A stretch of DNA of 56,374 bases. It comes from Candidatus Woesearchaeota archaeon. Its GTDB lineage: Archaea; Nanobdellota; Nanobdellia; Woesearchaeales; GW2011-AR4. This document shows positions 14,317 to 39,056 of the stretch, piece by piece. A program made the translations under genes and the position numbers. Under the pieces are notes generated by a model. That model was not told where the DNA came from and did no database searches. It was given only the letters and a program-made list of their open reading frames with translations. How positions within the stretch are numbered: the stretch's first letter is position 1; every line of letters starts with the position of its first letter. The DNA is taken from assembly GCA_016185845.1 (NCBI GenBank), contig JACPMV010000046.1:1-56374 (forward strand), written 5' to 3'.

Positions 14317-15174
14317 TTCATCCAAAGGGCTTTTTACTTTCTTCAGCTGCTGTGTCGAGACTTTTGTGTAAATCTGCGTCGTTGACAAATCAGAATGGCC
14401 TAAAAGCTCCTGTATGACCCTTATATCAGTCCCTGCTTCAAGCAGATGCGTTGCAAAGCTGCTTCTTAATGCATGGCAGAAAACCCTTTTCTTCAGGCCT
14501 GCTTTTTTTGCGTTTTCTTTAACAATATTTTGCGCCTGCCTTATTGTTATTGGCCTGCCTTTTACCGAGAAAATGTACTGGCTGCTGTCTTTCTTTTTTG
14601 TAATGTAATCGTTAAAATGATGGATCAGGTTATTGGAGAGTATGATGTACCTCTCCTTGTTGCCCTTGCCGTGCCTTATCTTGCCCATCTTTTCGCTTAA
14701 GTCAAGGTCGTCAATTTTCAGATTGACGCATTCGCTGACCCTTAATCCGGAAGAGTACATAAACTCGATAAGAAGCCTGTGCTTTGGATTATCAACAGCG
14801 TTAAGCAGTTTTTTTATCTCATCCTTTGTCAGTACTGTGGGGAGCTTTTTTTCCAGCTTTGGCGCCTTAACCTCATTAAAGGCTGGATTTTGCAATATTT
14901 CCCTGTAGAAGAACTTGAGAGAGCTTAAGGCAAGATTTGCGCTCCTTGGGCTGTATTTTCGTTCAGAGAGCAGGTAAGCAAGGTACCTCTTTGCATCATG
15001 CTCACCGACTTCCTTTGGATCTTTTTTAATGAACTCAATGAAATTTTTGCTGTGGTACTTATAGGAATCAACAGTCCTTTTGCTGAATCCCCTTATTTTG
15101 AGCTCTGTTTCAAGTTTATCCAGCATCTCTTCATTTTTTGACATAGTTAGTGGGATGAACTTGAGTAACATCAA
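14311..15174 (-). CDS. xerA: Tyrosine recombinase, archaeal XerA / XerCD family
   Basis: SAM-like N-domain. Catalytic region with R (GLRVSE), HALRSSFATHLLEAGTDIRVIQELLGHSDLSTTQIYT (H-x-x-R ... H ... Y). The start may be at 15144 (MSKNEE). Confidence 0.85.
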   Translation of the reverse strand: MMLLKFIPLTMSKNEEMLDKLETELKIRGFSKRTVDSYKYHSKNFIEFIKKDPKEVGEHDAKRYLAYLLSERKYSPRSANLALSSLKFFYREILQNPAFNEVKAPKLEKKLPTVLTKDEIKKLLNAVDNPKHRLLIEFMYSSGLRVSECVNLKIDDLDLSEKMGKIRHGKGNKERYIILSNNLIHHFNDYITKKKDSSQYIFSVKGRPITIRQAQNIVKENAKKAGLKKRVFCHALRSSFATHLLEAGTDIRVIQELLGHSDLSTTQIYTKVSTQQLKKVKSPLDEL

Positions 15175-20197: not shown

Positions 20198-21012
20198 TTT
20201 CCCAGCTCTTTGCTTCTTTTTATCGCAGCATTGATTGTTTTTTCTATGATTTTGCTTGTTTTGTTTTTGTCCAATACTTTTAATCCTGCCAGTGTAACAC
20301 CTTTTTTCGACGCTACCATTTTTATCAGTTCGTCAGGGCTTAGATTTTTTTCAATCAGCAGCTTACCGGTTCCCAATGCAGTTTTGGCAGCAAGCTTATA
20401 AGCCGTTTCCTTTGGTAGCCCATTTTTCATACCAGCTTTTGCCATTGCTTCCATGAAATAGGCGAAGAAAGCCGGTCCTGATCCGCTTATTGACGAAAGA
20501 GCATCTATCAATTCTTCTTTTATAAAAAATGATATGCCTGCCGAATTCAGCAATTTTTTAACTTCATTTACATCATCCTTTGTCGCGTATTTTCCCGCTG
20601 AAAACCCTGCAGCCATCTCTCCAACCAAGCTGTTTATGTTGGGCATAACCCTTATTATTCGCTTTTTGCCTAAAACAGATTCTATATGCCTTATTTTTAT
20701 TCCTGCGGCTATGGAAACAATTAGCTGGTTTTTTATTTCTCCTTTTATTTCTTTTAGGACAACATCAATGTCCTGCGGCTTTACGCAGATAAAGACAATA
20801 TCGGAGTTTCTTACGGCTTCTTTGTTGTCCGTTGTTGTTCTGATTCTTTTAAATTTTGATTTAATATTTCTCAAGTTTTCTTCCCTGTGGTCGCTTGCTA
20901 TCACGGATTTGGCAAGATTATTCTTATAGATACAGCTAATCAGGGCTGCTGCCATCTTTCCGGTTCCGATGAAGGAGATTGGTTTGGTCATCTTTTTTAA
21001 CACTTTATTCAC
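20194..21012 (-). CDS. proC: Pyrroline-5-carboxylate reductase
   Basis: Rossmann motif ISFIGTGKMAAAL and a P5CR C-terminal dimerisation domain. The biological start is probably the ATG at 20991 (MTKPISF..). Confidence 0.85.
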   Translation of the reverse strand: MNKVLKKMTKPISFIGTGKMAAALISCIYKNNLAKSVIASDHREENLRNIKSKFKRIRTTTDNKEAVRNSDIVFICVKPQDIDVVLKEIKGEIKNQLIVSIAAGIKIRHIESVLGKKRIIRVMPNINSLVGEMAAGFSAGKYATKDDVNEVKKLLNSAGISFFIKEELIDALSSISGSGPAFFAYFMEAMAKAGMKNGLPKETAYKLAAKTALGTGKLLIEKNLSPDELIKMVASKKGVTLAGLKVLDKNKTSKIIEKTINAAIKRSKELGK

Positions 21013-21704
21013 TTATTTTTAAACTTTTCATAATCAAGGACAGCTTTCTTATGCTTTTCAAACAATTTATTGTCAATATGCCCGTAAACTCCTTGAAGAT
21101 TGTCCTTGAACTGCTCCGAGACTATTTTTTCCTTTATTTTTAAAAATCTATCATTAAAATCCGCCCTTTCCGATACTTCCCCCTTAACCCATTCGGGATC
21201 CTTAACTTGCGGCATCAGCATAAAAATATCCCTTATGTCTGTATTTCTGCAGGCTACCAACTTCATAACTACAAGCGCCTCAGGATTCACAATCCGCAGC
21301 TTTAACTCTCCTGCAATGGTTTTTCCCTTTAGTGCTCTTAAAGCAGAGTTCTTAAAAACCCATTCTGCGCTAAACATTGCTTTTGTCTGCCTGTCATAAA
21401 CATTCTTAATCAATATATCGAAGCTGACAATAAAATTTTTCTTTATTGCTTTTTCATATCTGAGGAAATCTCCGGAATATGGCCCAAAATCTGTGCCTTT
21501 TGCTATTTCATAGCCTAATTTGTCCAGCTCCTTTGCTATTTCTGCAGTTTCAGCCTTATTTTCTGTGACTATATCGCAATCCACAGAAAATCTGGGCAGA
21601 GTGTAAGCATTGACTGCATAGCCGCCTATTACTGCAAATTTTTGATTATTTATTTTTTTAAGAGCGTCAAAAATTTCCTTTTCCCTAATCTGAAGCAGTT
21701 CCAT
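21009..21704 (-). CDS. Minimal nucleotidyltransferase, AbiEii-like toxin candidate
   Basis: VIGGYAVNAYTLPRFSVDCDIV fits the GG..(A)......R.S.D.D NTase pattern of DUF1814/AbiEii. It overlaps the upstream partner gene by 20 nt. Confidence 0.5.
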   Translation of the reverse strand: MELLQIREKEIFDALKKINNQKFAVIGGYAVNAYTLPRFSVDCDIVTENKAETAEIAKELDKLGYEIAKGTDFGPYSGDFLRYEKAIKKNFIVSFDILIKNVYDRQTKAMFSAEWVFKNSALRALKGKTIAGELKLRIVNPEALVVMKLVACRNTDIRDIFMLMPQVKDPEWVKGEVSERADFNDRFLKIKEKIVSEQFKDNLQGVYGHIDNKLFEKHKKAVLDYEKFKNK

Positions 21705-22287
21705 ATTTTTTCCTCATGTAGTTGTAGGCGTATGAATACATTTCATTTGCTTTTGCTGTTTTTAATGAGTCCTTTAATGGCTCAACTTTTAACCCGCCAT
21801 TGTCATCAAATTTAATCTCATTTACCGGGATTAAAATCACATATTCCCCAATTGTCGAGCCCTCTTTTATATAATTGGGTATATTTATTTTATTGAAGAA
21901 CCTTTTCCAGTATTGTAAGTCTTTTCTCAAGACCTTTATGAAGTAAGGTGATTTCTCAATGCCCCTCTGGACATAGGAATAGTCAGACCATACCTCTATT
22001 GCCGATAAATTTGTGAATGCATAAGGTTTTGAGGCTTCTTTCATTAAGCGTGGCACTTTGAATTCCAACAATCCTTCGATTACAGTCTCCGGCTGCATGC
22101 ATTTATAAGTGCCCCTTGAGGCCTTTACTATCCAGCCTGCTCTTAATAAGGTGGAGAATATCTTTTTCCTCATGCTCTGGCCTACAATCCAGTCTAATTC
22201 AGACTGCTTAAACTGTTCTCTTGGGCCGTGCCTTGTGAAAAACAATGAGTACGCCCTCAAGCAATACTGCGGTATTTCGCTTATCAT
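21685..22287 (-). CDS. AbiEi-like winged-helix antitoxin/regulator candidate
   Basis: The N-terminal LLRAGWIVKASRGTYKC matches the L..G.l..v.RG.Y signature of AbiEi N-domains. It lies upstream of and overlaps the NTase gene. Confidence 0.45.
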   Translation of the reverse strand: MISEIPQYCLRAYSLFFTRHGPREQFKQSELDWIVGQSMRKKIFSTLLRAGWIVKASRGTYKCMQPETVIEGLLEFKVPRLMKEASKPYAFTNLSAIEVWSDYSYVQRGIEKSPYFIKVLRKDLQYWKRFFNKINIPNYIKEGSTIGEYVILIPVNEIKFDDNGGLKVEPLKDSLKTAKANEMYSYAYNYMRKKYGTASD

Positions 22288-22567: not shown

Positions 22568-24637
22568 TTAATGTTCCCTTATTGCGAATAATTGCGCATA
22601 TCCTTGCGCAGTCTTTTTTGGCTTAATAATCTCATTTATTTGAGTTAGCATGCTTTGCCACTGGAATACGCTTTCAGGCATTTTTTTGCCCCACATATCC
22701 CATGGTCTTACCCCATAGTCCAAGCCGCCTTGCTCAGCGCCAATAGTATCCAACTCTTCCATAACCTCATTCCATGGGCGGATTTCACGCATTAATTTTT
22801 CTATTATATACATAGATATTCCTCTTGAAGATATATGCGGCTCCTGATTTTGGCCGCTTATAGCAAATGAATGGTCTGGCACTTCATAATAATATCTTCT
22901 TCCAACATGTTTCCAATCTACGCTTGTTTCTTTTCTTTTAACCCACCCAAGATCAAATGCAGGATTCTTGTCAGTCGGGCCTACTTTGTAAAGATAAGGG
23001 TATGTTCCAATATCTGATTTTTTCAGCCCTGCTCCGGGAATCTCCCTTAAAAGATCTACAGGAACATATTTTTGACCTGTAACTCTTCCTGTAACTGGGT
23101 CTTTCCTGTATGCTATATCATTTTCATTTTCCATATGCCATAAGTTCCATATTGATGCATTATTTGCTTCAACATAATCCATTATAGTCGAAGTCCCAGT
23201 ATGAAACCTGCCGTCTCTTAAATCATCTCTGTAAGTGTCATGCATATTTGTTATATAATTTGCCATTTCCAGCGTATCCACCCAAACCTTAAATTGCGAC
23301 TCGGCGCCGCCAGGAAGTTGTCTCCACGTGCTGCTTTTGGTAGGATTGCCTTTCTCATCCCATTTGTCCATCATTACATAGCCATCTTCATCAACTTCCA
23401 AAGGATAGCCATATTTATCAAGCCCATGGTCTAACTCATCAGGCTTTTTGTACCATTTGCCTCCTCCGGGATTTGTGTAGCCGTCATATTTTCTTAACTC
23501 GTCTTTAATTTCAGCATTGAAGTATCGCTTGCCGTAAACAATCGGCTGTATAATTTTATAAGAATGGTAATAAACCATTTTTTCTGGAGAAAATACTTCT
23601 TGGGATTGTGTTCTACTCATATCCGCAATTTTATCAAATGCCTGAGACATAACTACGCCACGATTCCTGACAAAAGAACGGGCCCTTCCCTCATATCCTG
23701 TAGTCAGCTCATCTCCAAAATGTGAACCTTTGATTTTTTCGCCACCGCAATATTCAGATAGTATAATTCCAATGTAGCTTATGTATGCTCCTCGTATTGA
23801 TTTAACATGACCTATCATATTTTTTTTGATAGTTTCATCCGCTTCCAAATCAACTACTCTTGCTATAAAATCATCGCATATTTTATTTATTGTAGCTGTA
23901 TAACGTAGAGCATAATCAGCCTGCCGGCCATATCCAAATGGGCTGATTTCAACAATCCATTCACGGCTCATGCCAGGAATAGGATACCTCATTTTGCATT
24001 TTGCAGGCACAATATACTCATAAGCCTGACCTGCAATGTTTATTGATAACTTATCAAAAACAAATGGATCCTGCAGTCTCCTCATTCTTTCCTCTTCAGT
24101 TTCTTCTTCAATATCCTGCTCTATTTCCAAGTCTTTTTGTGTTATCCCCCTTTCATATAATGGGTACTCCCAGTTTGTTCTTGAAGGATCCAGGAATATT
24201 CCCGCTTTTGCATATATATCATTAAGCTCTTCTACATAACCTCTTTGGTCCTTATCCGGGTCCCATCTTTGAAAAACATCCCAGCTTTTCTCAATGGAAT
24301 TTACTGCTTCTACTCGCCTTTGCAATAATTTAATTAAGTTTTCAACCCTTGTGTCGTGTCTTTTTAAGGGATGCCTGAGCCTTTGCCATAAGCTTATTTC
24401 TTCTCTTGCAACTTTGCCTATGTCAAGCCTTACTGCCTGCAGTGCGCCAGCCGCTTCCCCTCTGTATTTAGTATATCTTAATGGTATTCCCGTTCCTTCT
24501 TGAATATTTATATCAATCCATCTGCCAAAACGGGACCTCTTGAATTTATGCTTTATTATGTTAGCCCATCTTTGTGGCCATTTACTTGCCTGCCTTGGTT
24601 GTGGTTGTTGCACACTAGGCTGCTCTTGGTCTGCCAT
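22568..24637 (-). CDS. 689-aa orphan protein, last gene of the five-gene operon
   Basis: Strong SD (gggaggag) 5 nt before the ATG. Overlaps the upstream gene by 23 nt. Trp/Tyr/Arg-rich with no recognised motif. Confidence 0.7.
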   Translation of the reverse strand: MADQEQPSVQQPQPRQASKWPQRWANIIKHKFKRSRFGRWIDINIQEGTGIPLRYTKYRGEAAGALQAVRLDIGKVAREEISLWQRLRHPLKRHDTRVENLIKLLQRRVEAVNSIEKSWDVFQRWDPDKDQRGYVEELNDIYAKAGIFLDPSRTNWEYPLYERGITQKDLEIEQDIEEETEEERMRRLQDPFVFDKLSINIAGQAYEYIVPAKCKMRYPIPGMSREWIVEISPFGYGRQADYALRYTATINKICDDFIARVVDLEADETIKKNMIGHVKSIRGAYISYIGIILSEYCGGEKIKGSHFGDELTTGYEGRARSFVRNRGVVMSQAFDKIADMSRTQSQEVFSPEKMVYYHSYKIIQPIVYGKRYFNAEIKDELRKYDGYTNPGGGKWYKKPDELDHGLDKYGYPLEVDEDGYVMMDKWDEKGNPTKSSTWRQLPGGAESQFKVWVDTLEMANYITNMHDTYRDDLRDGRFHTGTSTIMDYVEANNASIWNLWHMENENDIAYRKDPVTGRVTGQKYVPVDLLREIPGAGLKKSDIGTYPYLYKVGPTDKNPAFDLGWVKRKETSVDWKHVGRRYYYEVPDHSFAISGQNQEPHISSRGISMYIIEKLMREIRPWNEVMEELDTIGAEQGGLDYGVRPWDMWGKKMPESVFQWQSMLTQINEIIKPKKTAQGYAQLFAIREH

Positions 24638-26387
24638 AATTCTCCTCCCTCTTAATTTCTATTGATGTTTTTGTTTGTTGATTATCTAAAATAAGGAACC
24701 CAAAATTATTTTTCATGAACCTATCGAGCACTCGATATTCTTCTTCAACTGCGACCATATAATCCTTTAATTCTTCCAGTTTTCTTTGAATATTCTCATC
24801 TTTAAATATACTCTCCATTAAAGATAGATTATATTCGGCGCTTTTAGCGAAACCAGCTGCCTGTCCAAGGCCGTACATTATTGCTAAGAAATACTTTGGC
24901 GTTAAGGAAGTTGCTTCTAAGCTGGCGCCGCTGATTTTACGAACCCTATCTATAAGTGGAATAGCCATATTAATGCGGGCAAGTGCAATTTCTAATCTTG
25001 ACACAATCTGTTCCCTTATATCATGATCGATAACCCTTTCTTTTGCAGAGAAAAAATCAGTAGATACATCAGCGCATCTATCACTTAAATATTCGAACAT
25101 TGTCTTTAAATCTTCAATTCTTTTCCTCAATCTTTCTTTAACCCTTCTAGCTTCTTTCAGGATGGCAGCGGCAGTGTCGCGTTCACTTTTGACTATTGGC
25201 AATAAAGCATCTTTCAGCTCGCCAACCTCGGGTTTTTCCATTTTGCTTAATTCCGCAATTCTGCTCCTAAAAAGAATTTCCATCGCTGTAATGAATGGGT
25301 ATATGACTCTTGCCCTCATGTACTGGACAGAGCTGAATTCCGCCAGCTTTTGCGTCAAAAATTGAAGCATTTCTCTTGGATATTCTCTTTTTGCTTCGGC
25401 CTTGGAAAACAACCCTTTGTGGTAAGCGATTTTTTGCTCCAGCTCCTCTGCAAATTCGGCAGCTCCGAAATCATTCACCAATTTGTCCACTACTTTTTTT
25501 GGATTTGTGAACCCTTCCCAATTAAATGAATCTCTTTGGAAGGCGTCTATTTGCGCTTTTAAATACCCAAGGAAGGCATAAAAGTTTTCAAGATGCCTCT
25601 TGGCTCTATTTGTTCTTGAGAATTTTTCAACTGCCTCATCGTTAAAGTCCTTTATCAAGCCCAAATGATCTTTGCCTTCTCCATCAAAGAAAACTTTGGC
25701 TCTGGCTTCAAAGAATGGGATTCCCATTGTCATAGACTCTCTTGTTTTCCATGACTCAACTTCTCTTAAATCCCTTGCCAGCCACTCTATCTCCTGCCCT
25801 GTAAGCATTACTATTATATTCTCAATTCTTGCAGATGCTTTTTTATCTCTCATGCTGTCAAGAGAAGCTCTTATTTCTGCTCTGTGGGGCGGGGTTTTAA
25901 TATATCCCTCAACTTTCTCTTTTTCAGGATTTTCCATTACAAACCTGTAAAGATTCAGCAATACAATAAACTCATCTTGTGCCTTATCACTTGTAAACTC
26001 TTTTCCTGATTTTCCTAGTTGCTCTAGGACATATCCCATCAGCTCTCCCCGGTATCTTACAATCCATTGCCTCATTGCCCTTAACTTTCTTAAAAATTCA
26101 AATGGGTCACCATTGGATGCCCTGTAGTTATTCGATATCAAGAGTATCAACTGGAAATCAGGGTATCTTTCCAGTAATTTGCGATCGTCATTTAAGCCGT
26201 TTTTTAAATGATCTTGCACCCTTATTCTTTTAGAATCTACTTTATCTATGAATTCCAAGCTGCTGCCAAAAACTTGGGCCAGAATTGCGTCTGCGCGTTT
26301 CATAGTTTCTTCAATAAGTTTACTTTTTCCTTTTCTTCGCAAAATGCCTTTCAGTTTTTCAAACAATGCTGAATTAATTTTAATCAT
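24615..26387 (-). CDS. 590-aa predominantly helical orphan protein
   Basis: ATGA start/stop overlap with the upstream gene. Long charged helical segments. No NTPase or nuclease motif seen. Confidence 0.7.
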   Translation of the reverse strand: MIKINSALFEKLKGILRRKGKSKLIEETMKRADAILAQVFGSSLEFIDKVDSKRIRVQDHLKNGLNDDRKLLERYPDFQLILLISNNYRASNGDPFEFLRKLRAMRQWIVRYRGELMGYVLEQLGKSGKEFTSDKAQDEFIVLLNLYRFVMENPEKEKVEGYIKTPPHRAEIRASLDSMRDKKASARIENIIVMLTGQEIEWLARDLREVESWKTRESMTMGIPFFEARAKVFFDGEGKDHLGLIKDFNDEAVEKFSRTNRAKRHLENFYAFLGYLKAQIDAFQRDSFNWEGFTNPKKVVDKLVNDFGAAEFAEELEQKIAYHKGLFSKAEAKREYPREMLQFLTQKLAEFSSVQYMRARVIYPFITAMEILFRSRIAELSKMEKPEVGELKDALLPIVKSERDTAAAILKEARRVKERLRKRIEDLKTMFEYLSDRCADVSTDFFSAKERVIDHDIREQIVSRLEIALARINMAIPLIDRVRKISGASLEATSLTPKYFLAIMYGLGQAAGFAKSAEYNLSLMESIFKDENIQRKLEELKDYMVAVEEEYRVLDRFMKNNFGFLILDNQQTKTSIEIKREENYGRPRAA

Positions 26388-28618
26388 TTTGTTTTTTCTC
26401 CGCCTGTAGTAACTCCAGTTGTGAATACTTTTTCAGGAGTTTTAGATGAACTATCCCATACCCAATAAGCCAATTCCTGCCTGGTTTTGTCAGTTTTCTT
26501 TTCTGCTTTTTCAATCATCATATTCAATACCTGCGATAATCCGACTGTGGAAAGCGTTGGGTAAGGATTTCCGGTTTTTCTGTCCCTGCTCACAGATTCA
26601 TCCCAGTAATTTTTTTTGCCCCAATATTTATAGAGCCCAGAATGCCTTAATGCCTCCAAATCAAATGCCCCTCTCTCAGGGTATTGCGGAGGTGTTCTTG
26701 TCGGATATTCTCTGCCATTTTGATTCCTGCTTCTCAAGTCAAATGTATTCTTGCTTATTAGGTTTGTATAATCTACATCAGACCTGCTGTTTGGATGGTA
26801 ATGCCCAAATCTAAGGTCCTGCATAAAAGCATCCCACTCATTTAAAATCTGTTTAAAGACAAAGGCAAACGATGCTATGTTAGGATACTCATTGGTTTGC
26901 GGGTAATCTTTAATGTCTTCTATCCTTACTCGTCTTATATAGCCAAGGTTTTTGTGCTCAACTTCTATGGCATTGACATCTTCCAGAACAAAGCCTTTTA
27001 TGTCAACCTCGTGCCTCAACGGGACTGTTCCAAATTGAGTTGCAAAAGACTGGATAGCAAAACCAAGCCTGAAACTCTTGTTAATTTTAGCCAATTCATC
27101 ATTTATTTGCTTTCTTACTTTAAGGCTTTTAAGTTCAAGCTGAGCAGCATCTGTCACTTCTAATTTGTAGCGTCTTTTGAATTTCTTATCGGTCCTGTAA
27201 AGTCTGGTAAATTCAGGCTTTAACCGTCCTCTAACCTCTCCTTCAAGCCTTCTATTAACTTCTTCAGCAACCCTTTCTTCAACCCATCTTCTGGCCGGTG
27301 AACCCGCACGACCAATGCCAGTCGCATTTGGAATTCTCCGTTTTATCTCGTTAAGCGCATGTTCTGTAAATCTTCGTCTTGCATCTTCAGTTAATGCGGT
27401 TCTTAGCTCGCTTTCAATCCTTTTTCTTAAATCTTCCATAAACTCTTTTTGCTTTTTCTTCATTATTTCAATGTATTTTCTTCTGACCGCTTTGGCGTAC
27501 TCCTTATAACCCGGATAATCTTTCCAAATCTTAAGTTTTTCAAAGTCTATAGACCAAACTACAGGATCGCCTTTATCAATGGTATTTACTGGAACTTCCC
27601 ACAACTCATAAATTGCGTTTTCGTCTGCAAACCTGTAATAATGCTTATATGCGCCGTATAAGGCAACTAGGTCCAAGATATGGATTTTTAGGCTCTTTAA
27701 CCTATGGATTAGCCCGAATTTCTTTATATCATCTTCGAATTGAGAATATCCTTTACTCATAGCTGTAAAAATTCCCAAGAAACGTGATTTTATATATCCT
27801 TCATATATCTTCAAATCGTCATGCTCATTGTATTTTCCTTTGAGTTCACTGCTTTCAAGATGACTTTTGAGCAATTCAAAAAATTGGGTAATCATCTCCC
27901 TGTTTGTGTTCCAGCCTCTTTTTTTATCACCCAAGTCAAACCTGTGCGTGTCAATCACTTCACTTAGCTCGTCATAACTCATTGGAGTCTGATCAAAAAT
28001 TATCTGAAGCCCGGCAGCCTGGGCCTGGGCATCCTCAACTCCTCCCTTTTTGCCATAATAAGTGTGCAATCTCGTCATCCAGTTCATAACCATCATTAAT
28101 TCTGCCCTAATCTGGGTAAAAGTGTAGGAAAGCTCATTATTGAACTGCGGATTTTTCATTTCAAGATTCTCTATTCTATTTTTTACAATCCGCAGTCTGG
28201 ATTGCCTTAATGCGAGCAAAAACGGAGCCCAGCCCCTTTCTTTTACCCCTTTCCAGATTCTGCTGCGGCGTTTTTTGTATGGGAACCATTTGTACCATTT
28301 ATTTGAGGTTTTTCCCAACAATCCAATTCCTGTCCACCACGGCATCCATGCAAATTTTGGAGCAACTTTTCTGAAAAAGACGCGCCACATTTTCCATATT
28401 ACCCAAAACCATATAATGCCAACTAGGGTATTTGAGAAAGGACCAAGATATTCCTTTCCACCAGCCGAGGTTGAAATACTGTCAAAGATAATAGTTACAG
28501 TCGGTACCCATCCTGCAATAAATGGCGTAGCTAATATATCTAGGAGTAGGAATACCATAAGCCATCTGAAGATTTTTCTCCATTTCCAGCTATCCAAAAT
28601 ATTTGTTGTGTCCGCCAT
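26384..28618 (-). CDS. 744-aa orphan protein with N-terminal transmembrane helices
   Basis: Two to three N-terminal hydrophobic helices, then Lys/Arg-rich helical regions. The C-terminal roughly 200 aa resemble the C-terminus of the 689-aa protein. Confidence 0.7.
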   Translation of the reverse strand: MADTTNILDSWKWRKIFRWLMVFLLLDILATPFIAGWVPTVTIIFDSISTSAGGKEYLGPFSNTLVGIIWFWVIWKMWRVFFRKVAPKFAWMPWWTGIGLLGKTSNKWYKWFPYKKRRSRIWKGVKERGWAPFLLALRQSRLRIVKNRIENLEMKNPQFNNELSYTFTQIRAELMMVMNWMTRLHTYYGKKGGVEDAQAQAAGLQIIFDQTPMSYDELSEVIDTHRFDLGDKKRGWNTNREMITQFFELLKSHLESSELKGKYNEHDDLKIYEGYIKSRFLGIFTAMSKGYSQFEDDIKKFGLIHRLKSLKIHILDLVALYGAYKHYYRFADENAIYELWEVPVNTIDKGDPVVWSIDFEKLKIWKDYPGYKEYAKAVRRKYIEIMKKKQKEFMEDLRKRIESELRTALTEDARRRFTEHALNEIKRRIPNATGIGRAGSPARRWVEERVAEEVNRRLEGEVRGRLKPEFTRLYRTDKKFKRRYKLEVTDAAQLELKSLKVRKQINDELAKINKSFRLGFAIQSFATQFGTVPLRHEVDIKGFVLEDVNAIEVEHKNLGYIRRVRIEDIKDYPQTNEYPNIASFAFVFKQILNEWDAFMQDLRFGHYHPNSRSDVDYTNLISKNTFDLRSRNQNGREYPTRTPPQYPERGAFDLEALRHSGLYKYWGKKNYWDESVSRDRKTGNPYPTLSTVGLSQVLNMMIEKAEKKTDKTRQELAYWVWDSSSKTPEKVFTTGVTTGGEKTK

Positions 28619-28622
28619 TGTA

Positions 28623-29777
28623 TTATTTAGTTATGGACTCCCATAGTCCGCCGACAAGCCCAGCTACTAATCCTACTACTAATTTGCCAATAGCCACGCC
28701 TGTACTCAATGAAAAACTGCTGCCAGGAGCTGAAGGCGCGCCCAGACTTGGTGCTCCAGCTATACTGCATGCGCTTCCTAAAGCTTTGGCAGTAGCTGAA
28801 AAAAATCCACTTATGTATCCTGCTCCGATTGTATTACTAGATACTTCCGCAATTTTGCATAATCCGCTTCCAAATAATCCGACAAGCGCGCTTGCGCCGA
28901 ACATTGTCCGGAATAGATATTCAACTACTACGATAGTTATTAGCCATCCTAATACCATTCCAAGAGAGCCTTTGCCTTGAGTGAGTATGCTGGCAATTAT
29001 CACTATTAGGAATAATTGCGCCATTCCAATTACAAGAGAGTAATCAGCTCCAGTACGGGCAAGAGTTGAGCCAAGCCATGCTGCTATGAAATAAGTAAGT
29101 TTTTTGCCGCCAGCTTGATCCAACTTTAGGAATACGCTGAAGAACCAGGCAAATAGGATGGTAGACCCAAAAAACACCCACAGCCTGTATTTATTCGCTT
29201 TTTCTGGCCTTAGTATTCCTCCTAAGGTTTTTCCAGGCGTTGAAGGATCAGGCTTGTCTGGCTCAAGGAGATAATTTTTAGCTACAGTATAATTTTCAGT
29301 TCTCCATAACCAATTATCTCCTATGCTTACCGCTATCATGCCTGCTATTAATATTGACAATAAGACAAGTCCAATTTGCCCTTGTTTTTTTTGCGGGTTA
29401 ACACCAAGAAACCCTGCTCCAAACCATCCAACAGCAGCAATAATTAACGCATTCACCAGAACTTTCGGCCTTAGTATTGTTGAAAGCGGCCCAACATTCC
29501 ATATATATCCCTCGCCTTTTCCGCCAATTGTCAGGACTGTTATGACGGCCAGCGCATAGCATATGACCCATATCGCTACTTTCTCCTTGCCCTCTTTTTT
29601 CGGTATAAGGACTGACTGAAGTATGAATAGAATGAAAAACACTATCTTGACGTTTACAAAAAATATAAACCATGTATTGCTGAATATGGGAGCGTCGAAT
29701 ATGCTTTGGGCAAAAGCCAACGGCAGGCTGATTATCAAAACCAATGCGCTAATCCACATTAATTTGTTTATTTTCAT
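28623..29777 (-). CDS. 384-aa polytopic membrane protein with a Gly/Ala/Ser-rich C-terminus
   Basis: Signal-like N-terminus and eight or more hydrophobic helices. C-terminal SNTIGAGYISGF and a Pro/Ala/Ser tail. 4-nt overlap with the upstream ATPase gene. Confidence 0.7.
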   Translation of the reverse strand: MKINKLMWISALVLIISLPLAFAQSIFDAPIFSNTWFIFFVNVKIVFFILFILQSVLIPKKEGKEKVAIWVICYALAVITVLTIGGKGEGYIWNVGPLSTILRPKVLVNALIIAAVGWFGAGFLGVNPQKKQGQIGLVLLSILIAGMIAVSIGDNWLWRTENYTVAKNYLLEPDKPDPSTPGKTLGGILRPEKANKYRLWVFFGSTILFAWFFSVFLKLDQAGGKKLTYFIAAWLGSTLARTGADYSLVIGMAQLFLIVIIASILTQGKGSLGMVLGWLITIVVVEYLFRTMFGASALVGLFGSGLCKIAEVSSNTIGAGYISGFFSATAKALGSACSIAGAPSLGAPSAPGSSFSLSTGVAIGKLVVGLVAGLVGGLWESITK

Positions 29778-30925
29778 AACTCTTTCACAGCCTCATCCAA
29801 AATTTTGTCATCAGGAAGCTCATCAAACTCATAGCCCATAGAAGTTAATTTAATCCAAAGCCTAAGAACATTATCAGTAAAGTAGAATTTGTTGCCTTTC
29901 TTGTGTATCACATCGACATCCATCAGCCTTTCAATGATGCTTTTTGTGACAGGGGCGCTCCTGTAGATTTTTTTGGCAATTTCGCTCAGTCTCAATTCAT
30001 CATTTGCGACGACTTTCAGGATTATTTTGAGCAGGGTCTGCCCCCTTGCCCTGTTGTAATAGTAATTCAGGGAATCATTGCAATAATTGTAAATAGGATT
30101 GTTTTTTTGCAGAAGCTCAATCAGAAATGATTTTTTAGCATCTTTTATCTCATTGTATCTTTTGGAAATAAGGATGGTTATCAAGGGATGGCCCTGGCCC
30201 AACGCCCAGATTTCTTCGCTTGCGTTATCTTTTCCTATAATGCTTTCCGCAAGCTCAATAGCCTCTTTTTTCTCAAGATTTTTTATCTCGTAGCACTCAA
30301 AATTTTTCAGCGAAGCAAGGCTTTCCCTTATGGCAGAGCTTGCCGCAATATACCTTGCATTTTCAGCCTCAAAATTTATCACTGATAAAATATCCCTAAT
30401 CTGCGAGAAATTGTTCAGGTCAAGAAGGTTCTCGAAATTGTCAAGGGCAATGATGAATTTCCTGCCGCTGTCTTTCCCAAGCCTTTCTGCAAAATCAAAC
30501 GCGCTTTCAACAAGCAGCTTCTGGTCGGGCTTTATCTTTAATAATTCATTCTCAACAGCCTTTATCAGAGAAAATGCATTTTTGCTTTTCAGCTCGTTTT
30601 CAGCCTTAAGAAGGTTTTCCAGCAGAAGAAATTTTTTGTACTCTTTTAAGGGCTTTTTTAAAAAATTATAGGCAACATTACCTATAAGCTCAACAGAAAA
30701 ATTCTCAGGATTGAGGCTTATTTTTTCCAAGTCAATATAGACAGGAACAACGTCTTTGGCATTTTTAAGATGCTCTTTGATTATTGCTGTTTTTCCTGAT
30801 TTTCTGGACCCAAGCAGTGCAATGTTCTTGCCCGCTCCTGCCTTGAAAGAGTTTGTATTTTTATCTAGCAAATCCAGGTAATACTCTCTCTTAAAAACTA
30901 CCTCTTTCTTTGCCAAATATTTCAC
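29774..30925 (-). CDS. Archaeal ATPase (Arch_ATPase-type AAA+) with a DUF234-like C-terminal winged helix
   Basis: Walker A LLGSRKSGKT. Walker B-like FIIALDNFENL. C-terminal wHTH SEIAKKIYRSAPVTKSIIERLMDVDVIHKKGNKFYF. GTG start at 30925. Confidence 0.75.
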   Translation of the reverse strand: MKYLAKKEVVFKREYYLDLLDKNTNSFKAGAGKNIALLGSRKSGKTAIIKEHLKNAKDVVPVYIDLEKISLNPENFSVELIGNVAYNFLKKPLKEYKKFLLLENLLKAENELKSKNAFSLIKAVENELLKIKPDQKLLVESAFDFAERLGKDSGRKFIIALDNFENLLDLNNFSQIRDILSVINFEAENARYIAASSAIRESLASLKNFECYEIKNLEKKEAIELAESIIGKDNASEEIWALGQGHPLITILISKRYNEIKDAKKSFLIELLQKNNPIYNYCNDSLNYYYNRARGQTLLKIILKVVANDELRLSEIAKKIYRSAPVTKSIIERLMDVDVIHKKGNKFYFTDNVLRLWIKLTSMGYEFDELPDDKILDEAVKEL

Positions 30926-30930
30926 TCGTA

Positions 30931-31180
30931 AATTATACCAATTGGAATATATACTTATAATATAAAAATGTTTTGTTTCTTTTAATTATACCAATAGGTA
31001 TATATTTTTAAAATTAATATTCCATTTTGTATAGAACTAGTATTTAAGACTTTTGTTTCTTATAATTATACCATTTAGTATATAAACTTTTTGGTATAAA
31101 TTTGGATATCAGCTCTATTCAGGAATAATGTAACCATTTTCTAGTAATAAAAATAAAAACCTTTATATATTGGTAGTATA
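30931..31180. promoter_or_regulatory. Divergent control region with repeated TATACCA-N-GGTATA palindromes
   Basis: aattataccaattggaatatata (30931-30953), aattataccaataggtatata (30984-31004) and aattataccatttagtatata (31064-31084). Copies 2 and 3 share the flank ttttgtttct. A degenerate copy tatattggtagtata (31165-31179) overlaps the TATA of the RHH operon. Confidence 0.65.
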
Positions 31181-31226
31181 AAACACTACTGAGTAGTACT
31201 CATATAACGTTGGGGTAATTTGTTTC

Positions 31227-31421
31227 ATGAAACACAAGCTAAGTGTAAGTTTAGATGAAAGGCTCGTGCAGGAGCTAGACAGGATTCTTTCTACGGGCAA
31301 GTACAGAAACAAGAGCCATGCAATAGACTTTGCAGTGAGAAAATTGCTGGATAGCTCATCTTTGACGAACAAAATCTCCACGCCTGCCCCACAAACTAGC
31401 CCGGAGGCAAAAAATGGCTGA
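31227..31421 (+). CDS. Ribbon-helix-helix (CopG-like) protein, module 1
   Basis: KLSVSLDERLVQELDRILSTGKYRNKSHAIDFAVRKLL has a beta-strand plus two-helix RHH pattern. Its stop overlaps the next start (ATGGCTGA). Confidence 0.75.
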   Translation: MKHKLSVSLDERLVQELDRILSTGKYRNKSHAIDFAVRKLLDSSSLTNKISTPAPQTSPEAKNG

Positions 31422-32289
31422 GCCTTCAGAGCTTGAAAATATGGCGCAGGCTGCTCCGCAAACTGCTTCTCAACCAGCACAACAGCAGCCTGAGAAAAAG
31501 AAAGAAGAAACTCCGCTAGAGGAAATTGCAAACGGAGCAAAAAATGTTGCTGCATTTGGTGTCGGTACTGCATTGCCCTTTGTCTGGCCATTTGGAACTG
31601 GCATTAACAACGCAGTAACCGCCCTGCCGTTGGCCATGGGCTCTGCAATAGAAGACAAGATGCAGGGCAAGCCGATAAACTGGGTTAAAGGCGCAAAAGA
31701 ATCTCTTGTTGGAACTATAATCAACCGGCCGTTGGAGCGGATGTTCGGATACATAAACATTTCTCGTGATTATGTGACTGCAAATTACGGAATGATTCCT
31801 GGCTTTGCGGCAGCTACTGCGGCATTGGGAGCTGCGCAGGCTGTTTTCGTTGGAGCTTACATGGGCCTTAACCATGTCATACAAAATCACACATTCAAAG
31901 GCTTGTATGAAAAATTAAAGAAAGACTACTTGCCGACAATCAAAAGAACCTGGAAATATGTACTGCCATTTAGCGCTTTGAATGTTACCCTTCTACCACT
32001 AACCGGCCTTTACCAAACTCTTGGGGTTACAGCACAGCTTGCATACGGCTCATTGATGTCTTTATTGTTCAGGCTGGTTGGTCCAAAAGCAGAAGGCACC
32101 AGTCTGAAGAATCTAGTCAAGGAATTGAATCCTTTTGCGTACATAGGTGGGACTATAAGTGTCACAGCCAAAGCTGCCAAAAATACAATCGGGGGATTAT
32201 ACACTGGACTTTATGATTTAGGCAGAGCCATTGGCGGATATTCTGCAAAAGCGGCACCAGCAACAGCACCAGCACTGCAACCGGCATAA
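31414..32289 (+). CDS. Paralogous membrane protein P1 (291 aa)
   Basis: Small-residue-rich hydrophobic helices. Motifs LNPFAYIGG and AKNTIGGLYTGL. Pro/Ala-rich tail. Confidence 0.7.
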   Translation: MAEPSELENMAQAAPQTASQPAQQQPEKKKEETPLEEIANGAKNVAAFGVGTALPFVWPFGTGINNAVTALPLAMGSAIEDKMQGKPINWVKGAKESLVGTIINRPLERMFGYINISRDYVTANYGMIPGFAAATAALGAAQAVFVGAYMGLNHVIQNHTFKGLYEKLKKDYLPTIKRTWKYVLPFSALNVTLLPLTGLYQTLGVTAQLAYGSLMSLLFRLVGPKAEGTSLKNLVKELNPFAYIGGTISVTAKAAKNTIGGLYTGLYDLGRAIGGYSAKAAPATAPALQPA

Positions 32290-32291
32290 AA

Positions 32292-32438
32292 ATGAAACAA
32301 AAAATATCCATCACAATAGATGAAAAAACAGTTCACGATATTTTGAAGACTATTTCTACAGGAAAATTCAGGAATAAAAGCCACGTTGTAGAGTACGCTG
32401 TAAGGAAACTGCTTGAGGTGGAAAATGGCAGAGACTAA
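32292..32438 (+). CDS. Ribbon-helix-helix protein, module 2 (48 aa, not in the ORF track)
   Basis: My own translation is MKQKISITIDEKTVHDILKTISTGKFRNKSHVVEYAVRKLLEVENGRD. It is paralogous to modules 1 and 3 and overlaps the P2 start by 14 nt. Confidence 0.7.
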   Translation: MKQKISITIDEKTVHDILKTISTGKFRNKSHVVEYAVRKLLEVENGRD

Positions 32439-33285
32439 TCCTCTGGCAGTTCCTGGAGAACAGAAAAAGGAAAAAGGAACATTGGAGAGTGTAGTTGACG
32501 AAATATGGGATTTTGGAAAAAAGACAATTGCCATAGGCGCAGTTGCTGCTATGCCTTTCCTTTACAATTTCTATGATCCAAGCCATGTGGCAAGAGCTGC
32601 CGTTACAACTTACGGATTTGCCGCTGCCAAATCAACAGCGAATGTAATACAAAACAAAAAGCCTTTGGAAGGAATAGTATGGCAAGGCGCAACTGGAAAT
32701 ATGCTTTCCTATCCTTTAGCGCGGGGATTCACAGGATTAAACAATCTGGAAACAGCACTTGCTCCGGACTATGGCGCTACAACTGCCAGAGTGGCAAAAG
32801 CCGGCGGAATGGTTTTTGGATTGCAGCCCGCATTCACGACTATCAGGACTGCGCTTAATTATGGAGTCGGAAAAAAATTCAGGGAAAATTTGTGGCCGGG
32901 CATTAATAATACTTTAAAGTATATATCATTAATAGGCGCAGCCAATGTTTTGTGGATATACCAATATGGATTATTGGCGCAAATGGCTACGTCCATGCTT
33001 GGCAGCTATGTTATCAACCTAGTGGAATCTCTAAGAGGCGGAAAAGGCCACATAAACAATCTCTTCAGTGCTTTAAATCCGTTTTCTTACATCGGCGCAG
33101 CCGCAGGCGTTTCCTACAAGCTCGCCAAAAACACAATCGGCGGAATTTATACAGGACTTCATGATGTTGGAAAATCCATTGGCGATGCTTTTGGAGGCTC
33201 ATATCAGCCTTCTGCTCCATCTCAACCATCACCGGCAAGGCCAGCACCATCACCAGCAGCAGCGCATCCAGCCCCAGCACACTAA
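32425..33285 (+). CDS. Paralogous membrane protein P2
   Basis: I chose the start at MAETNPL by analogy with P1 (MAEPSE) and P4 (MAENLE). Motifs LNPFSYIGA and AKNTIGGIYTGL. Pro/Ala/Ser tail. Confidence 0.7.
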   Translation: MAETNPLAVPGEQKKEKGTLESVVDEIWDFGKKTIAIGAVAAMPFLYNFYDPSHVARAAVTTYGFAAAKSTANVIQNKKPLEGIVWQGATGNMLSYPLARGFTGLNNLETALAPDYGATTARVAKAGGMVFGLQPAFTTIRTALNYGVGKKFRENLWPGINNTLKYISLIGAANVLWIYQYGLLAQMATSMLGSYVINLVESLRGGKGHINNLFSALNPFSYIGAAAGVSYKLAKNTIGGIYTGLHDVGKSIGDAFGGSYQPSAPSQPSPARPAPSPAAAHPAPAH

Positions 33286-33287
33286 AA

Positions 33288-33461
33288 ATGAAGCAAAAAA
33301 TAAGCATAACTTTGGACGAAGAAACAGTTTTCAAAATTCAAAATAATCTGCGCACTGGAAAGTTCAGGAACAAAAGCCATGTTGTGGAGTTTGCAGTGAA
33401 GAAACTGCTTGAAGCGGAAAATTCTGAAGACAAAATTCTTTTGAGGGGTGATATGGAATGA
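33288..33461 (+). CDS. Ribbon-helix-helix protein, module 3 (57 aa, not in the ORF track)
   Basis: My own translation is MKQKISITLDEETVFKIQNNLRTGKFRNKSHVVEFAVKKLLEAENSEDKILLRGDME. ATGA overlap with P3. Confidence 0.7.
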   Translation: MKQKISITLDEETVFKIQNNLRTGKFRNKSHVVEFAVKKLLEAENSEDKILLRGDME

Positions 33462-34129
33462 GCCTCGAAGAAAAAGTTGCAGACCATAAGAACAGGGGAT
33501 TCCTGAGAAAAGCGCTGAAAATTGGGCTGTATGCCGGAATTGGCGCGGCAGCAGGCGCATTAAGCTACGGGCTTGTAGGAATTTCAGGCCCATTAACTGG
33601 TATTGCGTTCAGCGCAGGCTCTGCAGTTTTGAATGCCCTTGGAAAAAACCCTGACAAGAAATCAAGGGGCCTTGAAGGGATAGTCAAGGATTTTACGGTA
33701 GGTTCTTTGACTGGAATAGCAGGAGTGTGGGGCTACGATTTGGCCGCATCTTTGTTTCCTGTGCCTGGGATAGGGAGGGCATTATTTGGGCTTGCAGTTG
33801 CAAATTCCGTATTTGACGCTGCATATCTTGTTAGTGATTATATCATCAAGAACGATTTTAACCCAAGAGGAATTGGCAGACATGTTAAGGATAATTTTTG
33901 GCCGTTATTTAGGGATTCCACGATATGGCTTGGTTTGCCTGTTGCATTGACAATAAACGGCTATGGAATTCCTGCAACAATCGGAGGACTTGACTTAAGA
34001 GGATATCCAACAATTCTTGCAGCCGATGCAGCTTTTAGGGTAGTTGCAGGACTGGCTGAATCAAAAGCTTCCGGCAAGAGCCATTACGGGTATTCCGTTC
34101 CAAACATACAATATGCAGGAGCGCACTAA
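33458..34129 (+). CDS. Paralogous membrane protein P3 (223 aa, shorter)
   Basis: Gly/Ala-rich helices. VKDNFWPLFRDSTIWLGLP matches FRENLWPGINNTLKYISL (P2) and FSENYWKSTKKTMLYLGLP (P4). Confidence 0.65.
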   Translation: MSLEEKVADHKNRGFLRKALKIGLYAGIGAAAGALSYGLVGISGPLTGIAFSAGSAVLNALGKNPDKKSRGLEGIVKDFTVGSLTGIAGVWGYDLAASLFPVPGIGRALFGLAVANSVFDAAYLVSDYIIKNDFNPRGIGRHVKDNFWPLFRDSTIWLGLPVALTINGYGIPATIGGLDLRGYPTILAADAAFRVVAGLAESKASGKSHYGYSVPNIQYAGAH

Positions 34130-34130
34130 G

Positions 34131-34901
34131 ATGGCAGAAAACCTTGAGCAAAAAACTGAATCAGAATTCGGGCAATTATTCAAAGGAATAGCCAATACTT
34201 TTATAGGGGCCGGAGCAATAGGCGCTTCTTATGCCTTATTGGGCACTACTGGACTGGCAATTGCCTCTGCTGCTCCGTTAAGCGGAAGGATTGTGACCAA
34301 GCTTGCAGGCAATGATTATACGGGCAGAAATTTCAGGAATGATACACTTGCAGGAGCCGTTACAGCGCCATTATTTGTAGGAATACTTAATGCTGTGACA
34401 AGGCTTCCAAGATATTACGGAATAGACGGCTTGGTTAATATTTTAGGGGCATCCATACCTGCCTATTCGCTTGGAGTTGCAGGATTTACATTAGCAGCAA
34501 TACCTTTTTTCACAGCTTTGACATATCCTATAGGATACATGGTGAGAAATAAAACATTAAAAGGAATTGGCAAGGATTTCAGCGAAAATTACTGGAAGAG
34601 TACAAAAAAGACTATGCTGTACCTAGGCTTGCCCGGAGCAGCTCTGGTATCATTAGGGGCTACTTTGCCTTATTTAGCGCCTTACCTGGCTCCGATATAC
34701 TTCGGATTAGGAATAGTCTCCAGGGCTATGAACTCAAAAGAAAAACTGGACTATAAAAAATTGTTCAATCCATCAACATATTTGCCAAACTTTTTGAATC
34801 CGTTTTATATAGTAGAAGGACTGGCAAGCTTAATCTCCAGGGCAGTAAGATCAAGCCCTAAGCCAGCTGCTCCTGAGTTATCACCGCAGCCCGCTCACTA
34901 A
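34131..34901 (+). CDS. Paralogous membrane protein P4 (no RHH partner)
   Basis: The start at MAENLEQ is 2 nt after the P3 stop. FLNPFYIVEG and a Pro/Ala tail ending PQPAH, like P2 (APAH). Confidence 0.65.
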   Translation: MAENLEQKTESEFGQLFKGIANTFIGAGAIGASYALLGTTGLAIASAAPLSGRIVTKLAGNDYTGRNFRNDTLAGAVTAPLFVGILNAVTRLPRYYGIDGLVNILGASIPAYSLGVAGFTLAAIPFFTALTYPIGYMVRNKTLKGIGKDFSENYWKSTKKTMLYLGLPGAALVSLGATLPYLAPYLAPIYFGLGIVSRAMNSKEKLDYKKLFNPSTYLPNFLNPFYIVEGLASLISRAVRSSPKPAAPELSPQPAH

Positions 34902-35691: not shown

Positions 35692-36108
35692 TCACTCTAT
35701 TCTTTCTATGTAGGGAAATTTATCAAAATCCGAGTCAAAGCTGGCTACATTTTTAACTCCGAATTTTTTGGCTAATGCAATAATGGTGCAGTCAGTAAAG
35801 CTTAATCTGCTTGTTTTTTTAAAATTTTCCCATGACTGCAAAAATATTTCCTCATCAATATTAAACCTTTCTATAGTTGGATCGCTTAAAAGAGCATCAC
35901 CAATTTCATTTATCTTATCATCAGGGATGGATTTAGCTCTGAGAAATGTTACTAGTTCATCAAATATATAATCAGAAATAAAGCACTGGCCAAATTCCTT
36001 ATTTTTAATTTTGGATTTCAACGCTAATGCGTTCTCATGCTTATGGTCTCCTGAATCATTTAGAGCGATTAGAAAAGAAGTATTCAAAATTAAACTCAAG
36101 TTTTCCAC
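35692..36108 (-). CDS. vapC: PIN-domain toxin (VapC-like)
   Basis: Acidic PIN residues are in context (LNTSFLIALND, DYIFDELV, FTDCTIIA, SFDSDF). Confidence 0.75.
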   Translation of the reverse strand: MENLSLILNTSFLIALNDSGDHKHENALALKSKIKNKEFGQCFISDYIFDELVTFLRAKSIPDDKINEIGDALLSDPTIERFNIDEEIFLQSWENFKKTSRLSFTDCTIIALAKKFGVKNVASFDSDFDKFPYIERIE

Positions 36109-38666: not shown

Positions 38667-39056
38667 TTAATCCCCAATGTAAACAATCTTTTTCATGTTT
38701 TTGAAATGTTCGTCCCCGCTAATTAGCATGCAATTCAATTCATTTTGCTTCGCAACTAATATTGCATCAATTAGCCCAAAATCTTTTACTTTTTTTCTGA
38801 TTTCATGCTTTGCTTCCGCAGCTTTCAGCCAAATATCAGCTTGCACAGGCAGCATAATGGAATTTTTATTTATGATATCCTTAATGCGGCCAAAATCGCT
38901 GTTTGTTCTCAGGCAATAACTCTTCACTTCGCTTAAAGTGCATTCCATAGTTATGAATTTATGATTTTTGTTGCCCAGCAATTTTTTTAATTTCAATCCA
39001 CCGTTTGAACCTACAAAATACTCTATCCAAGCCCATGAGTCAACTATAAACATCAT
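38667..39056 (-). CDS. vapC: PIN-domain toxin (VapC-like)
   Basis: FIVDSWAWIEY, LSEV, LIDAILVA and ISGDEHF are PIN acidic positions. Confidence 0.75.
   Translation of the reverse strand: MMFIVDSWAWIEYFVGSNGGLKLKKLLGNKNHKFITMECTLSEVKSYCLRTNSDFGRIKDIINKNSIMLPVQADIWLKAAEAKHEIRKKVKDFGLIDAILVAKQNELNCMLISGDEHFKNMKKIVYIGD

Follow-up and report, generated by a model that had tools for sequence, protein, structure and literature searches.

Archaeal ATPases of the Pfam family PF01637, whose fold is assigned to the AAA+ type seen in Cdc6 and the clamp loaders (PMC1913061), offer the closest described counterpart to one product of the operon that we analyse here. The operon comprises five genes, A to E, on the minus strand of contig JACPMV010000046.1 (assembly GCA_016185845.1) of a Candidatus Woesearchaeota archaeon, at positions 22568-30925 of the 56,374-nucleotide (nt) stretch that was analysed as a whole and is called the window below. 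As in PF01637 proteins, protein A has the Walker A motif and the aspartate of Walker B, together with a segment resembling an AAA+ lid and a winged helix at the C-terminus; unlike them, it stays below the Pfam cut-offs, lacks DUF234, has Asp-Asn in Walker B and no sensor-2 arginine at the aligned position, and belongs to a tight subfamily of its own (mostly 68-89% identical) whose gene always overlaps that of a membrane protein by an ATGA. At the level of families, the nearest precedent is module 98 of Castelle et al. 2021, which gathers 51 mostly unannotated families specific to Woesearchaeota and Pacearchaeota (PMC8204110). The operon families likewise lack annotation and occur widely in both groups but nowhere else, and the five are plausible candidate members of that module; the earlier work concerns family presence and absence and does not cover the operon and its synteny, the contrast in rates, the promoter boxes or the domain that C and E have in common.

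The layout of the locus is also reminiscent of Zorya, a defence system of the membrane proteins ZorA and ZorB and the large cytosolic proteins ZorC and ZorD, in that both have a membrane-anchored protein with a long cytoplasmic helical part, large soluble partners and toxin-antitoxin genes nearby. Unlike Zorya, the operon has no PADLOC match to a Zorya or other defence model and no MotAB-like, nuclease or helicase signatures, and it is vertically inherited, fixed in place and confined to a single lineage. Its upstream region, with a repeated 16-bp palindrome and a ribbon-helix-helix (RHH)-like gene beside it, resembles those of autoregulated operons such as partition and toxin-antitoxin cassettes and archaeal orc1/cdc6 genes with their origin recognition boxes (ORBs), whereas protein A has no ParA- or Cdc6-type signature and large membrane and soluble proteins lie downstream in place of a toxin or a partition adaptor. 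Proteins B to E match no family in Pfam, NCBIfam, PHROGs or PADLOC, and the family libraries likewise returned no meaningful match for 23 members of the D family, 63 of the E family and nine long relatives. For four of the five proteins, no relative has a known function or fold, and no known kind of system therefore fits; nor did the literature yield any account of the operon or of its synteny, promoter or C/E domain. An initial annotation, made from the sequence alone, had expected the large proteins to lack homology to any characterized system, as is the case; it had also called them orphans, which holds in that B to E belong to no known family, but not in the strict sense, given that relatives exist within the Woesearchaeota, Pacearchaeota and Nanoarchaeota, and only there.

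The operon is tightly packed. All five minus-strand open reading frames, together with the overlaps and the gap that join them, were confirmed: A (29774-30925, 383 amino acids (aa) from a GTG start), B (28623-29777, 384 aa), C (26384-28618, 744 aa), D (24615-26387, 590 aa) and E (22568-24637, 689 aa). A and B share a 4-nt ATGA overlap, a 4-nt gap separates B from C, C and D again overlap by a 4-nt ATGA, and D and E overlap by 23 nt, with a GGAGG 8 nt 5' of the E start codon ATG. The ATGA overlap of A and B is kept in each of the 23 related loci that contain this junction, and the tight packing is therefore selected, not a product of chance. The gene order is the same in about 30 related genomes. 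The initial annotation had proposed a single unit, to be judged by whether synteny holds outside this genome, and what emerges on that test is one coherent, co-inherited unit. Features that it had not included are the fusion of B and C in relatives, the paralogy of C and E, the rate contrast between A and B to E, and the promoter palindromes.

Among 5.77 billion proteins, 17 relatives of E (counted as 90% clusters) and nine of C were retrieved, and their contigs carry the ATPase, the membrane protein and C (as two genes or one fused gene), D and E. A pattern scan over one genome per GTDB species yielded 27 loci. Iterated local hidden Markov models, sensitive enough to recover even D homologues that pairwise comparison misses, showed the succession A, B/C, D, E wherever a locus was long enough, with D between C and E in 26 of the 26 related loci that reach this position. 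As an independent test, three A homologues were taken on long contigs outside the E-derived set (loci L039 to L041); in all of them A is followed by genes of the size of B, C, D and E, with the same neighbours. The site of the operon is constant, between a block with thioredoxin reductase, peroxiredoxin and a binding protein and a block with proCAB, PAC2, DUF192 and Xer. All named relatives are metagenome-assembled genomes assigned to Candidatus Woesearchaeota, Pacearchaeota, Nanoarchaeota or Nanoarchaeia, and identical copies of E occur on short contigs of several runs in one metagenome project. IMG/VR viral contigs contain no relatives of E or A, and the G+C content of the operon (0.38-0.42) is native to the window (0.39). 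Given the fixed site, the native composition and the lack of relatives in IMG/VR, the operon is not an integrated element; it is one unit, vertically inherited and restricted to Woesearchaeota and Pacearchaeota (class Nanoarchaeia, DPANN).

Rates of change within this constant frame differ widely. Over the same set of relatives, identity to the window proteins is 54-88% for PAC2 (81-88% in closer relatives), 61-82% for Xer, 82-85% for thioredoxin reductase, 66-75% for proA and 63-77% for A (40-49% in the three most distant loci), against 27-38% for B, 27-46% for C, 23-49% for E and 24-37% for D, the fastest-evolving member (11-20% in more distant loci and 11-39% to relatives overall). A is thus conserved at a housekeeping rate and B to E diverge several-fold faster, as do the membrane paralogues on the divergent strand, which are only 25-47% identical in most relatives. 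A and the promoter thus experience strong constraint of an ordinary kind, and the remaining locus is changing several-fold faster.

Beneath the divergence of C and E lies a common C-terminal domain of about 200-260 aa, covering approximately residues 525-744 of C (26387-27046, minus strand) and 395-660 of E (22658-23455, minus strand). Aligned with hhalign, C and E match with a probability of 95.6% and an E-value (E) of 1.2e-8 over 146 columns (E residues 412-616 against C residues 535-703), and the two domains are paralogous and represent a new protein domain. Searching 1.84 billion 50%-identity representatives with a profile of the domain gave 343 of them at E<=1e-3; among the matches listed, the domain is always C-terminal in proteins of about 500-1100 aa, that is, in a C or E architecture. 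The joint alignment contains the invariant or near-invariant elements EV(D), D, R, DLRxGxxH, AFD, G, Y, GxS and D, and in E the domain is marked by the motifs GLDxYGYPLEVD, RDDLRDGRYH, NPAFD, GRKYYY, ISSRGxSMYI and GFDYGxRPW. Even across 63 diverse E-type proteins with a mean column identity of 13%, D407, E414, D467, P559, D562, G579, Y583, G606 and D640 are invariant, and R470, D471, D472, R474, D475, R477, H479 and R605 nearly so. This cluster of charged residues would point to a binding or catalytic site.

E itself has no transmembrane segment and is soluble, with 2.9% Trp, 6.0% Tyr and a conserved N-terminus of the form MA..QQP... Its AlphaFold2 model, built from 17 sequences, has a predicted local distance difference test score (pLDDT) of 68.4 and a predicted template modelling score of 0.62, with residues of about 100-470 mostly above a pLDDT of 75, and combines a small sheet with three long helices and additional strands in a mixed fold. 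Foldseek searches with this model gave no match (best E 1.6 in the PDB and 0.28 in BFVD).

B and C correspond to the two parts of a single membrane protein; in most relatives (L006, L010, L011 and L012 among them) they are encoded by one fused gene whose product has 800-1000 aa. The multi-pass nature originally assigned to B agrees with its approximately 8-10 hydrophobic segments; its conserved N-terminus is signal-peptide-like and ends in AFAQ, and its alignment contains the motifs GYIWQVG and GGILRPE. C, for which a database call sets the start at Met21 (28558) to give 724 aa, opens with one or two hydrophobic segments, in keeping with the N-terminal transmembrane helices first proposed for it. 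These lead into a juxtamembrane stretch rich in Lys and Arg, followed by a conserved block of helices, a charged helical region that varies, and the C-terminal domain that E also has. All fused proteins have 5-9 Lys/Arg in the membrane-proximal stretches after the last hydrophobic segment, and because such a stretch follows the last transmembrane segment, C probably has its soluble part on the cytoplasmic side of the membrane.

D, which has no transmembrane segment either, is probably a soluble, helical protein. Its PDB matches are all to helical-bundle proteins and compositional in nature (apolipoprotein A-IV, E 6.5e-4; syntaxin Habc, E 4e-3), and hhalign found no relation of D to C or E; the best probability was 13.7% for D against C and E and for the N-terminal halves of C and E against each other, which amounts to no similarity. 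The PDB chain matches of A, C, D and E as a whole (apolipoproteins, syntaxin Habc and viral fusion heptad repeats, E 6.5e-4 to 10) were rejected as compositional coiled-coil noise.

Protein A has the sequence features of an AAA+-type P-loop ATPase with a C-terminal winged helix. Its true start is probably the TTG at 30916, giving 380 aa, because a TTGGCnAGAAA motif is conserved there in relatives and the length agrees with the 380-aa database call. A search for homologues found 233 proteins, of which the 120 listed are 72-89% identical to A. The initial label of an archaeal ATPase with DUF234 stands as far as the Walker A motif GSRKSGKT is concerned; the match to ATPase_2 (PF01637) is sub-threshold (22.4 bits, E 1.2e-4, against a gathering cut-off of 33.2), although some close homologues carry a precomputed PF01637 match, and no DUF234 appears in the Pfam scan at E<=1. 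Matches to HTH_45 (20 bits against a cut-off of 25.5), HTH_Cmi2_C, AAA_14, DUF815 and AAA_16 are all sub-threshold as well, and in PADLOC-DB 2.0 the best hit is mad8 (E 0.0068, 14 bits), accompanied by winged-helix noise from CasR.

An alignment of 22 A sequences shows an invariant Walker A (LLGxRKSGKT), a Walker B of the form hhhhDNxE in which Asn163 and Glu165 are invariant, and an almost invariant winged helix, ELRLSEIAKKIYRSAPVTKSILERL. In AAA+ proteins the catalytic Glu usually occupies the Walker B position where A has Asn. A G-H-P segment aligns with the sensor-2 region of RuvB (GTPR), without its arginine. Against all PDB chains at E<=10, the profile built from these sequences matches the RuvB lid best (E 0.13) and no Orc1/Cdc6 chain, and A has no Cdc6_C or ParA-type match in Pfam; its domain order nevertheless looks Orc1/Cdc6-like. 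Taken together, A likely binds ATP and may act as an ATP-binding switch with slow or altered hydrolysis.

Directly 5' of A, a 300-bp spacer of 22% G+C holds the promoter/operator region of the operon (30926-31110, minus strand), with five palindromic boxes and two TATA-like elements (30959-30968 and 31041-31048). The boxes are 16-bp palindromes of the form TATAYC-N4-GRTATA at 30934-30949, 30987-31002, 31018-31033, 31067-31082 and 31083-31098, and the arrangement resembles a duplicated box-TATA-box module in which the box nearest to A sits between the proximal TATA-like element and the start codon, the position of a repressor. The 10-mer TGGTATAATT is present in three copies, all of them here and none in the rest of the window, a count reached in none of 100 shuffles; its exact form is absent from relatives, and the degenerate palindrome is the conserved element. 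About 170 bp including the boxes are strongly conserved across 12 genomes whose C, D and E are only 25-38% identical. In locus L008, where toxin-antitoxin cassettes split A from the divergent unit, the boxes remain immediately 5' of A, and the most diverged A proteins (L023 and L016, 41-49% identity) keep both the winged-helix motif and the promoter boxes. This joint retention fits autoregulation by A, without proving it.

A second conserved non-coding element, TATTACTAGAAAATGGTTACA with ACTACCAATATATAAAGG upstream of it, lies at 31100-31226 (L008 1118-1257) and adjoins the first RHH-like gene of the divergent unit. In L008 it stays with the RHH-like gene and not with A, and it may be the promoter/operator of that unit.

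This divergent unit is an array at 31227-34901 on the plus strand, comprising three translationally coupled modules of an RHH-like and a membrane-protein gene and a fourth membrane paralogue: RHH1 (31227-31421, 64 aa) with membrane protein 1 (31414-32289), RHH2 (32292-32438, 48 aa) with membrane protein 2 (~32425-33285), RHH3 (33288-33461, 57 aa) with membrane protein 3 (33458-34129), and membrane protein 4 (~34131-34901). Pfam gave no match at E<=1 for the 64-aa product; the pattern K-L-S-V-S-L-D followed by two helices, recurring in three paralogues, suggests an RHH fold for the small proteins. The membrane proteins are mutually paralogous, the first reaching 31 bits against Mpv17_PMP22 (Pfam cut-off 27); all four have Pro/Ala-rich tails and three of them end in ...AH. 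In L008, L010, L039, L040 and L041, too, the array lies beside A, often as two pairs, with 43-77% identity of the RHH-like protein next to A over 43 compared residues, and is possibly associated functionally with the operon. A 142-aa open reading frame on the minus strand (31163-31591) was rejected as probably spurious, as it overlaps the conserved RHH-like and membrane genes of the plus strand.

The genes that flank the operon in the window are ordinary chromosomal ones (proC/proA/proB, PAC2, DUF192, an Xer-type recombinase, thioredoxin reductase, peroxiredoxin, and further a periplasmic binding protein, phosphoenolpyruvate synthase, an M17 peptidase and a ribonucleotide reductase with an intein), and because the named relatives all belong to one lineage, the window comes from the chromosome of a DPANN archaeon in the Woesearchaeota/Nanoarchaeia lineage. 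The recombinase gene, a tyrosine recombinase of Xer type at 14311-15174, is 7.4 kb from the operon. Closer by, between E and proC on the minus strand (21009-22287), are an AbiEii-type nucleotidyltransferase gene (21009-21704, whose product scores 25.8 bits and passes the Pfam cut-off of 22.5) and an upstream 200-aa gene without a family match, a pair otherwise seen in the closest relative alone (L008 17052-18330, 84-85% identical). Toxin-antitoxin or defence-type insertions flank the operon in L008 (1257-3030 and 12210-16780) and lie beside it in L006 (12030-14559), L039 (2199-2812) and L040 (8252-8871); their gene types differ by relative (VapBC, MazE/PIN, HEPN/MNT pairs, AAA_14-DUF4143, DUF3368/UPF0175), and such genes are absent in L004, L010 and L011. 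The flanks of the operon act as an insertion hotspot, and the operon itself stays intact.

Elsewhere in the window, two ribonucleotide reductase large-subunit genes lie on the minus strand at 53682-56363 and 49562-51316, the upstream one containing the intein, with a LAGLIDADG endonuclease domain, and running close to the window end. Two PIN-domain genes (35692-36108 and, on the minus strand, 38667-39056) stand amid redox housekeeping genes for peroxiredoxin, thioredoxin reductase and a ferredoxin-reductase-like protein. The only replication-related gene noticed in the window, at 7065-8492 on the minus strand, encodes a DHH / DHH-CID / DHHA1 protein (RecJ/GAN-Cdc45-like).

We tentatively favour, at a little short of an even chance, a lineage-specific, tightly regulated, membrane-anchored complex with a role in the envelope or in host contact; a membrane-associated assembly, as the initial annotation had suggested, is the most reasonable reading of the locus, and our confidence in the specific envelope or host-contact role is lower than in the model as a whole. 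B/C would anchor the complex in the membrane, with the large cytoplasmic part of C pairing with soluble E through their paralogous domains and helical D serving as a scaffold. A would be a slowly hydrolysing ATP switch that binds the palindromic boxes and keeps the operon repressed until a signal arrives, or that assembles the complex, or both; alternatively, the boxes could be bound by the conserved RHH-like protein next door. Because B to E and the neighbouring membrane paralogues diverge fast while the charged site, possibly catalytic or metal-binding, stays fixed, we think that the complex works at the envelope of the cell, against a partner that itself changes quickly; in these presumed episymbionts, contact with a host or another cell, or a remodelling of the envelope, would be the most likely setting.

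Several points weigh against this model. The AlphaFold2 model of E is of medium quality and part of the C/E domain is at low confidence, and that of C, from nine sequences, is unusable (pLDDT 43.8). By crude hydropathy the fused B-C proteins have 9-14 segments, a range that spans odd and even numbers, and the cytoplasmic placement is drawn only from the positive-inside rule and the lack of signal peptides in D and E. The divergence of B to E could instead reflect weak constraint on helical proteins and not a changing partner, and the RHH-like protein next door is as plausible a binder of the boxes as A. Host contact is a guess from lifestyle, not from sequence. Furthermore, toxin-antitoxin and Abi genes gather on both flanks in several relatives, as would fit a defence neighbourhood.

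That last point leads to an explanation which we regard as unlikely but worth serious thought, namely an abortive-infection-type anti-virus defence in which A senses infection and B/C, D and E form the effector and might, for instance, damage the membrane. An arms race would account for the rapid change of B to E, an ATPase with a membrane protein and large cytosolic proteins resembles systems such as Zorya in layout, and defence-type genes surround the operon, with AbiEii following E in the window, HEPN/MNT, VapBC and AAA_14-DUF4143 genes around it in L008, an MNT and a DUF3368 gene following E in L006, and PIN/MazE and VapBC genes upstream in L039 and L040. Yet these neighbours vary and are missing from three loci, as expected of hotspot insertions and not of partners, and adjacent toxin-antitoxin genes are the only support for the defence role that the initial annotation had offered as one option. 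Defence systems are usually patchy and horizontally spread, whereas this operon has one fixed site and vertical inheritance in all relatives examined, with A at a housekeeping rate; it is absent from other phyla, the listed matches all being of C or E architecture and the named relatives Woesearchaeota, Pacearchaeota and Nanoarchaeota, and there is no credible PADLOC match, the best being mad8 (E 0.007), to A only. Should the operon be a core defence system after all, it would be an unusual case of a vertically fixed one. The same neighbourhood, with Abi and toxin-antitoxin genes adjacent, a tyrosine recombinase gene 7.4 kb away and unannotated proteins, could also suggest an integrated mobile element or a domesticated provirus remnant, the integrated-element function that had likewise been offered at the outset. 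This explanation is largely refuted, and we give it hardly any weight: the recombinase is itself a syntenic, housekeeping-type Xer (61-82% identical in relatives), PHROGs returned noise only, E and A have no relatives in IMG/VR, the best BFVD match has an E of 0.28, and the operon combines native composition with an identical chromosomal site across distant relatives.

A further alternative, which we consider quite improbable, takes B/C as a translocon that exports D and E, which have conserved N-termini but no signal peptides, either as cargo or as parts of the surface that reach a host cell. It would account for the signal-peptide-like start and many transmembrane segments of B, the conserved N-terminus of E and the combination of fast-evolving cargo with a conserved ATPase, in a lineage that is predicted to be symbiotic and whose specific families are often membrane-bound or extracellular (PMC8204110). 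However, A is not a secretion-type ATPase, given its winged helix and its Walker B without the usual Glu; no similarity to any secretion system arose in Pfam, NCBIfam or PDB searches; and the Lys/Arg stretch would place the C domain, the same domain as in E, inside the cell. Finally, the locus might handle DNA, with A resembling an initiator or partition protein, the boxes an ORB-like origin or a centromere-like site, and B to E tethering the DNA to the membrane. The AAA+ and winged-helix domains of A, as in Orc1/Cdc6, its housekeeping rate, five palindromes in an AT-rich spacer (22% G+C) directly 5' of A and an RHH-like gene beside the repeats, as in many partition cassettes, are in line with such a role. 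It is very unlikely nonetheless, as A matches no Orc1/Cdc6 chain in the PDB at E<=10 and no Cdc6_C or ParA-type family in Pfam, cumulative GC skew has no turning point at 31 kb, and the boxes bracket TATA-like elements in the manner of operators; we also know of no precedent for an initiator co-translated with a polytopic membrane protein, which we count against this explanation.

The membrane-anchored complex that we favour would matter most for the lineage in which it is found. Among uncultured archaea, Woesearchaeota and Pacearchaeota rank with the most abundant; their genomes are tiny and they presumably depend on hosts, yet to our knowledge the machinery of their envelope or host contact has no known component. 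It is conceivable, although we think the chances are well below even, that the operon encodes an undescribed membrane machine that defines these archaea, with new folds, a new domain built around a charged site and an ATPase-switched, multi-operator promoter, and that mediates contact or exchange with the host. Further, the work yields a new C/E domain whose invariant charged residues are suited to mutagenesis, a defined DNA motif for binding assays, and, in gene A, a strongly conserved marker for locating the operon in metagenomes. At 8.4 kb, about 1% of a genome of ~1 Mb, and in place throughout the lineage, the operon is a concrete candidate for lineage-specific cell biology.

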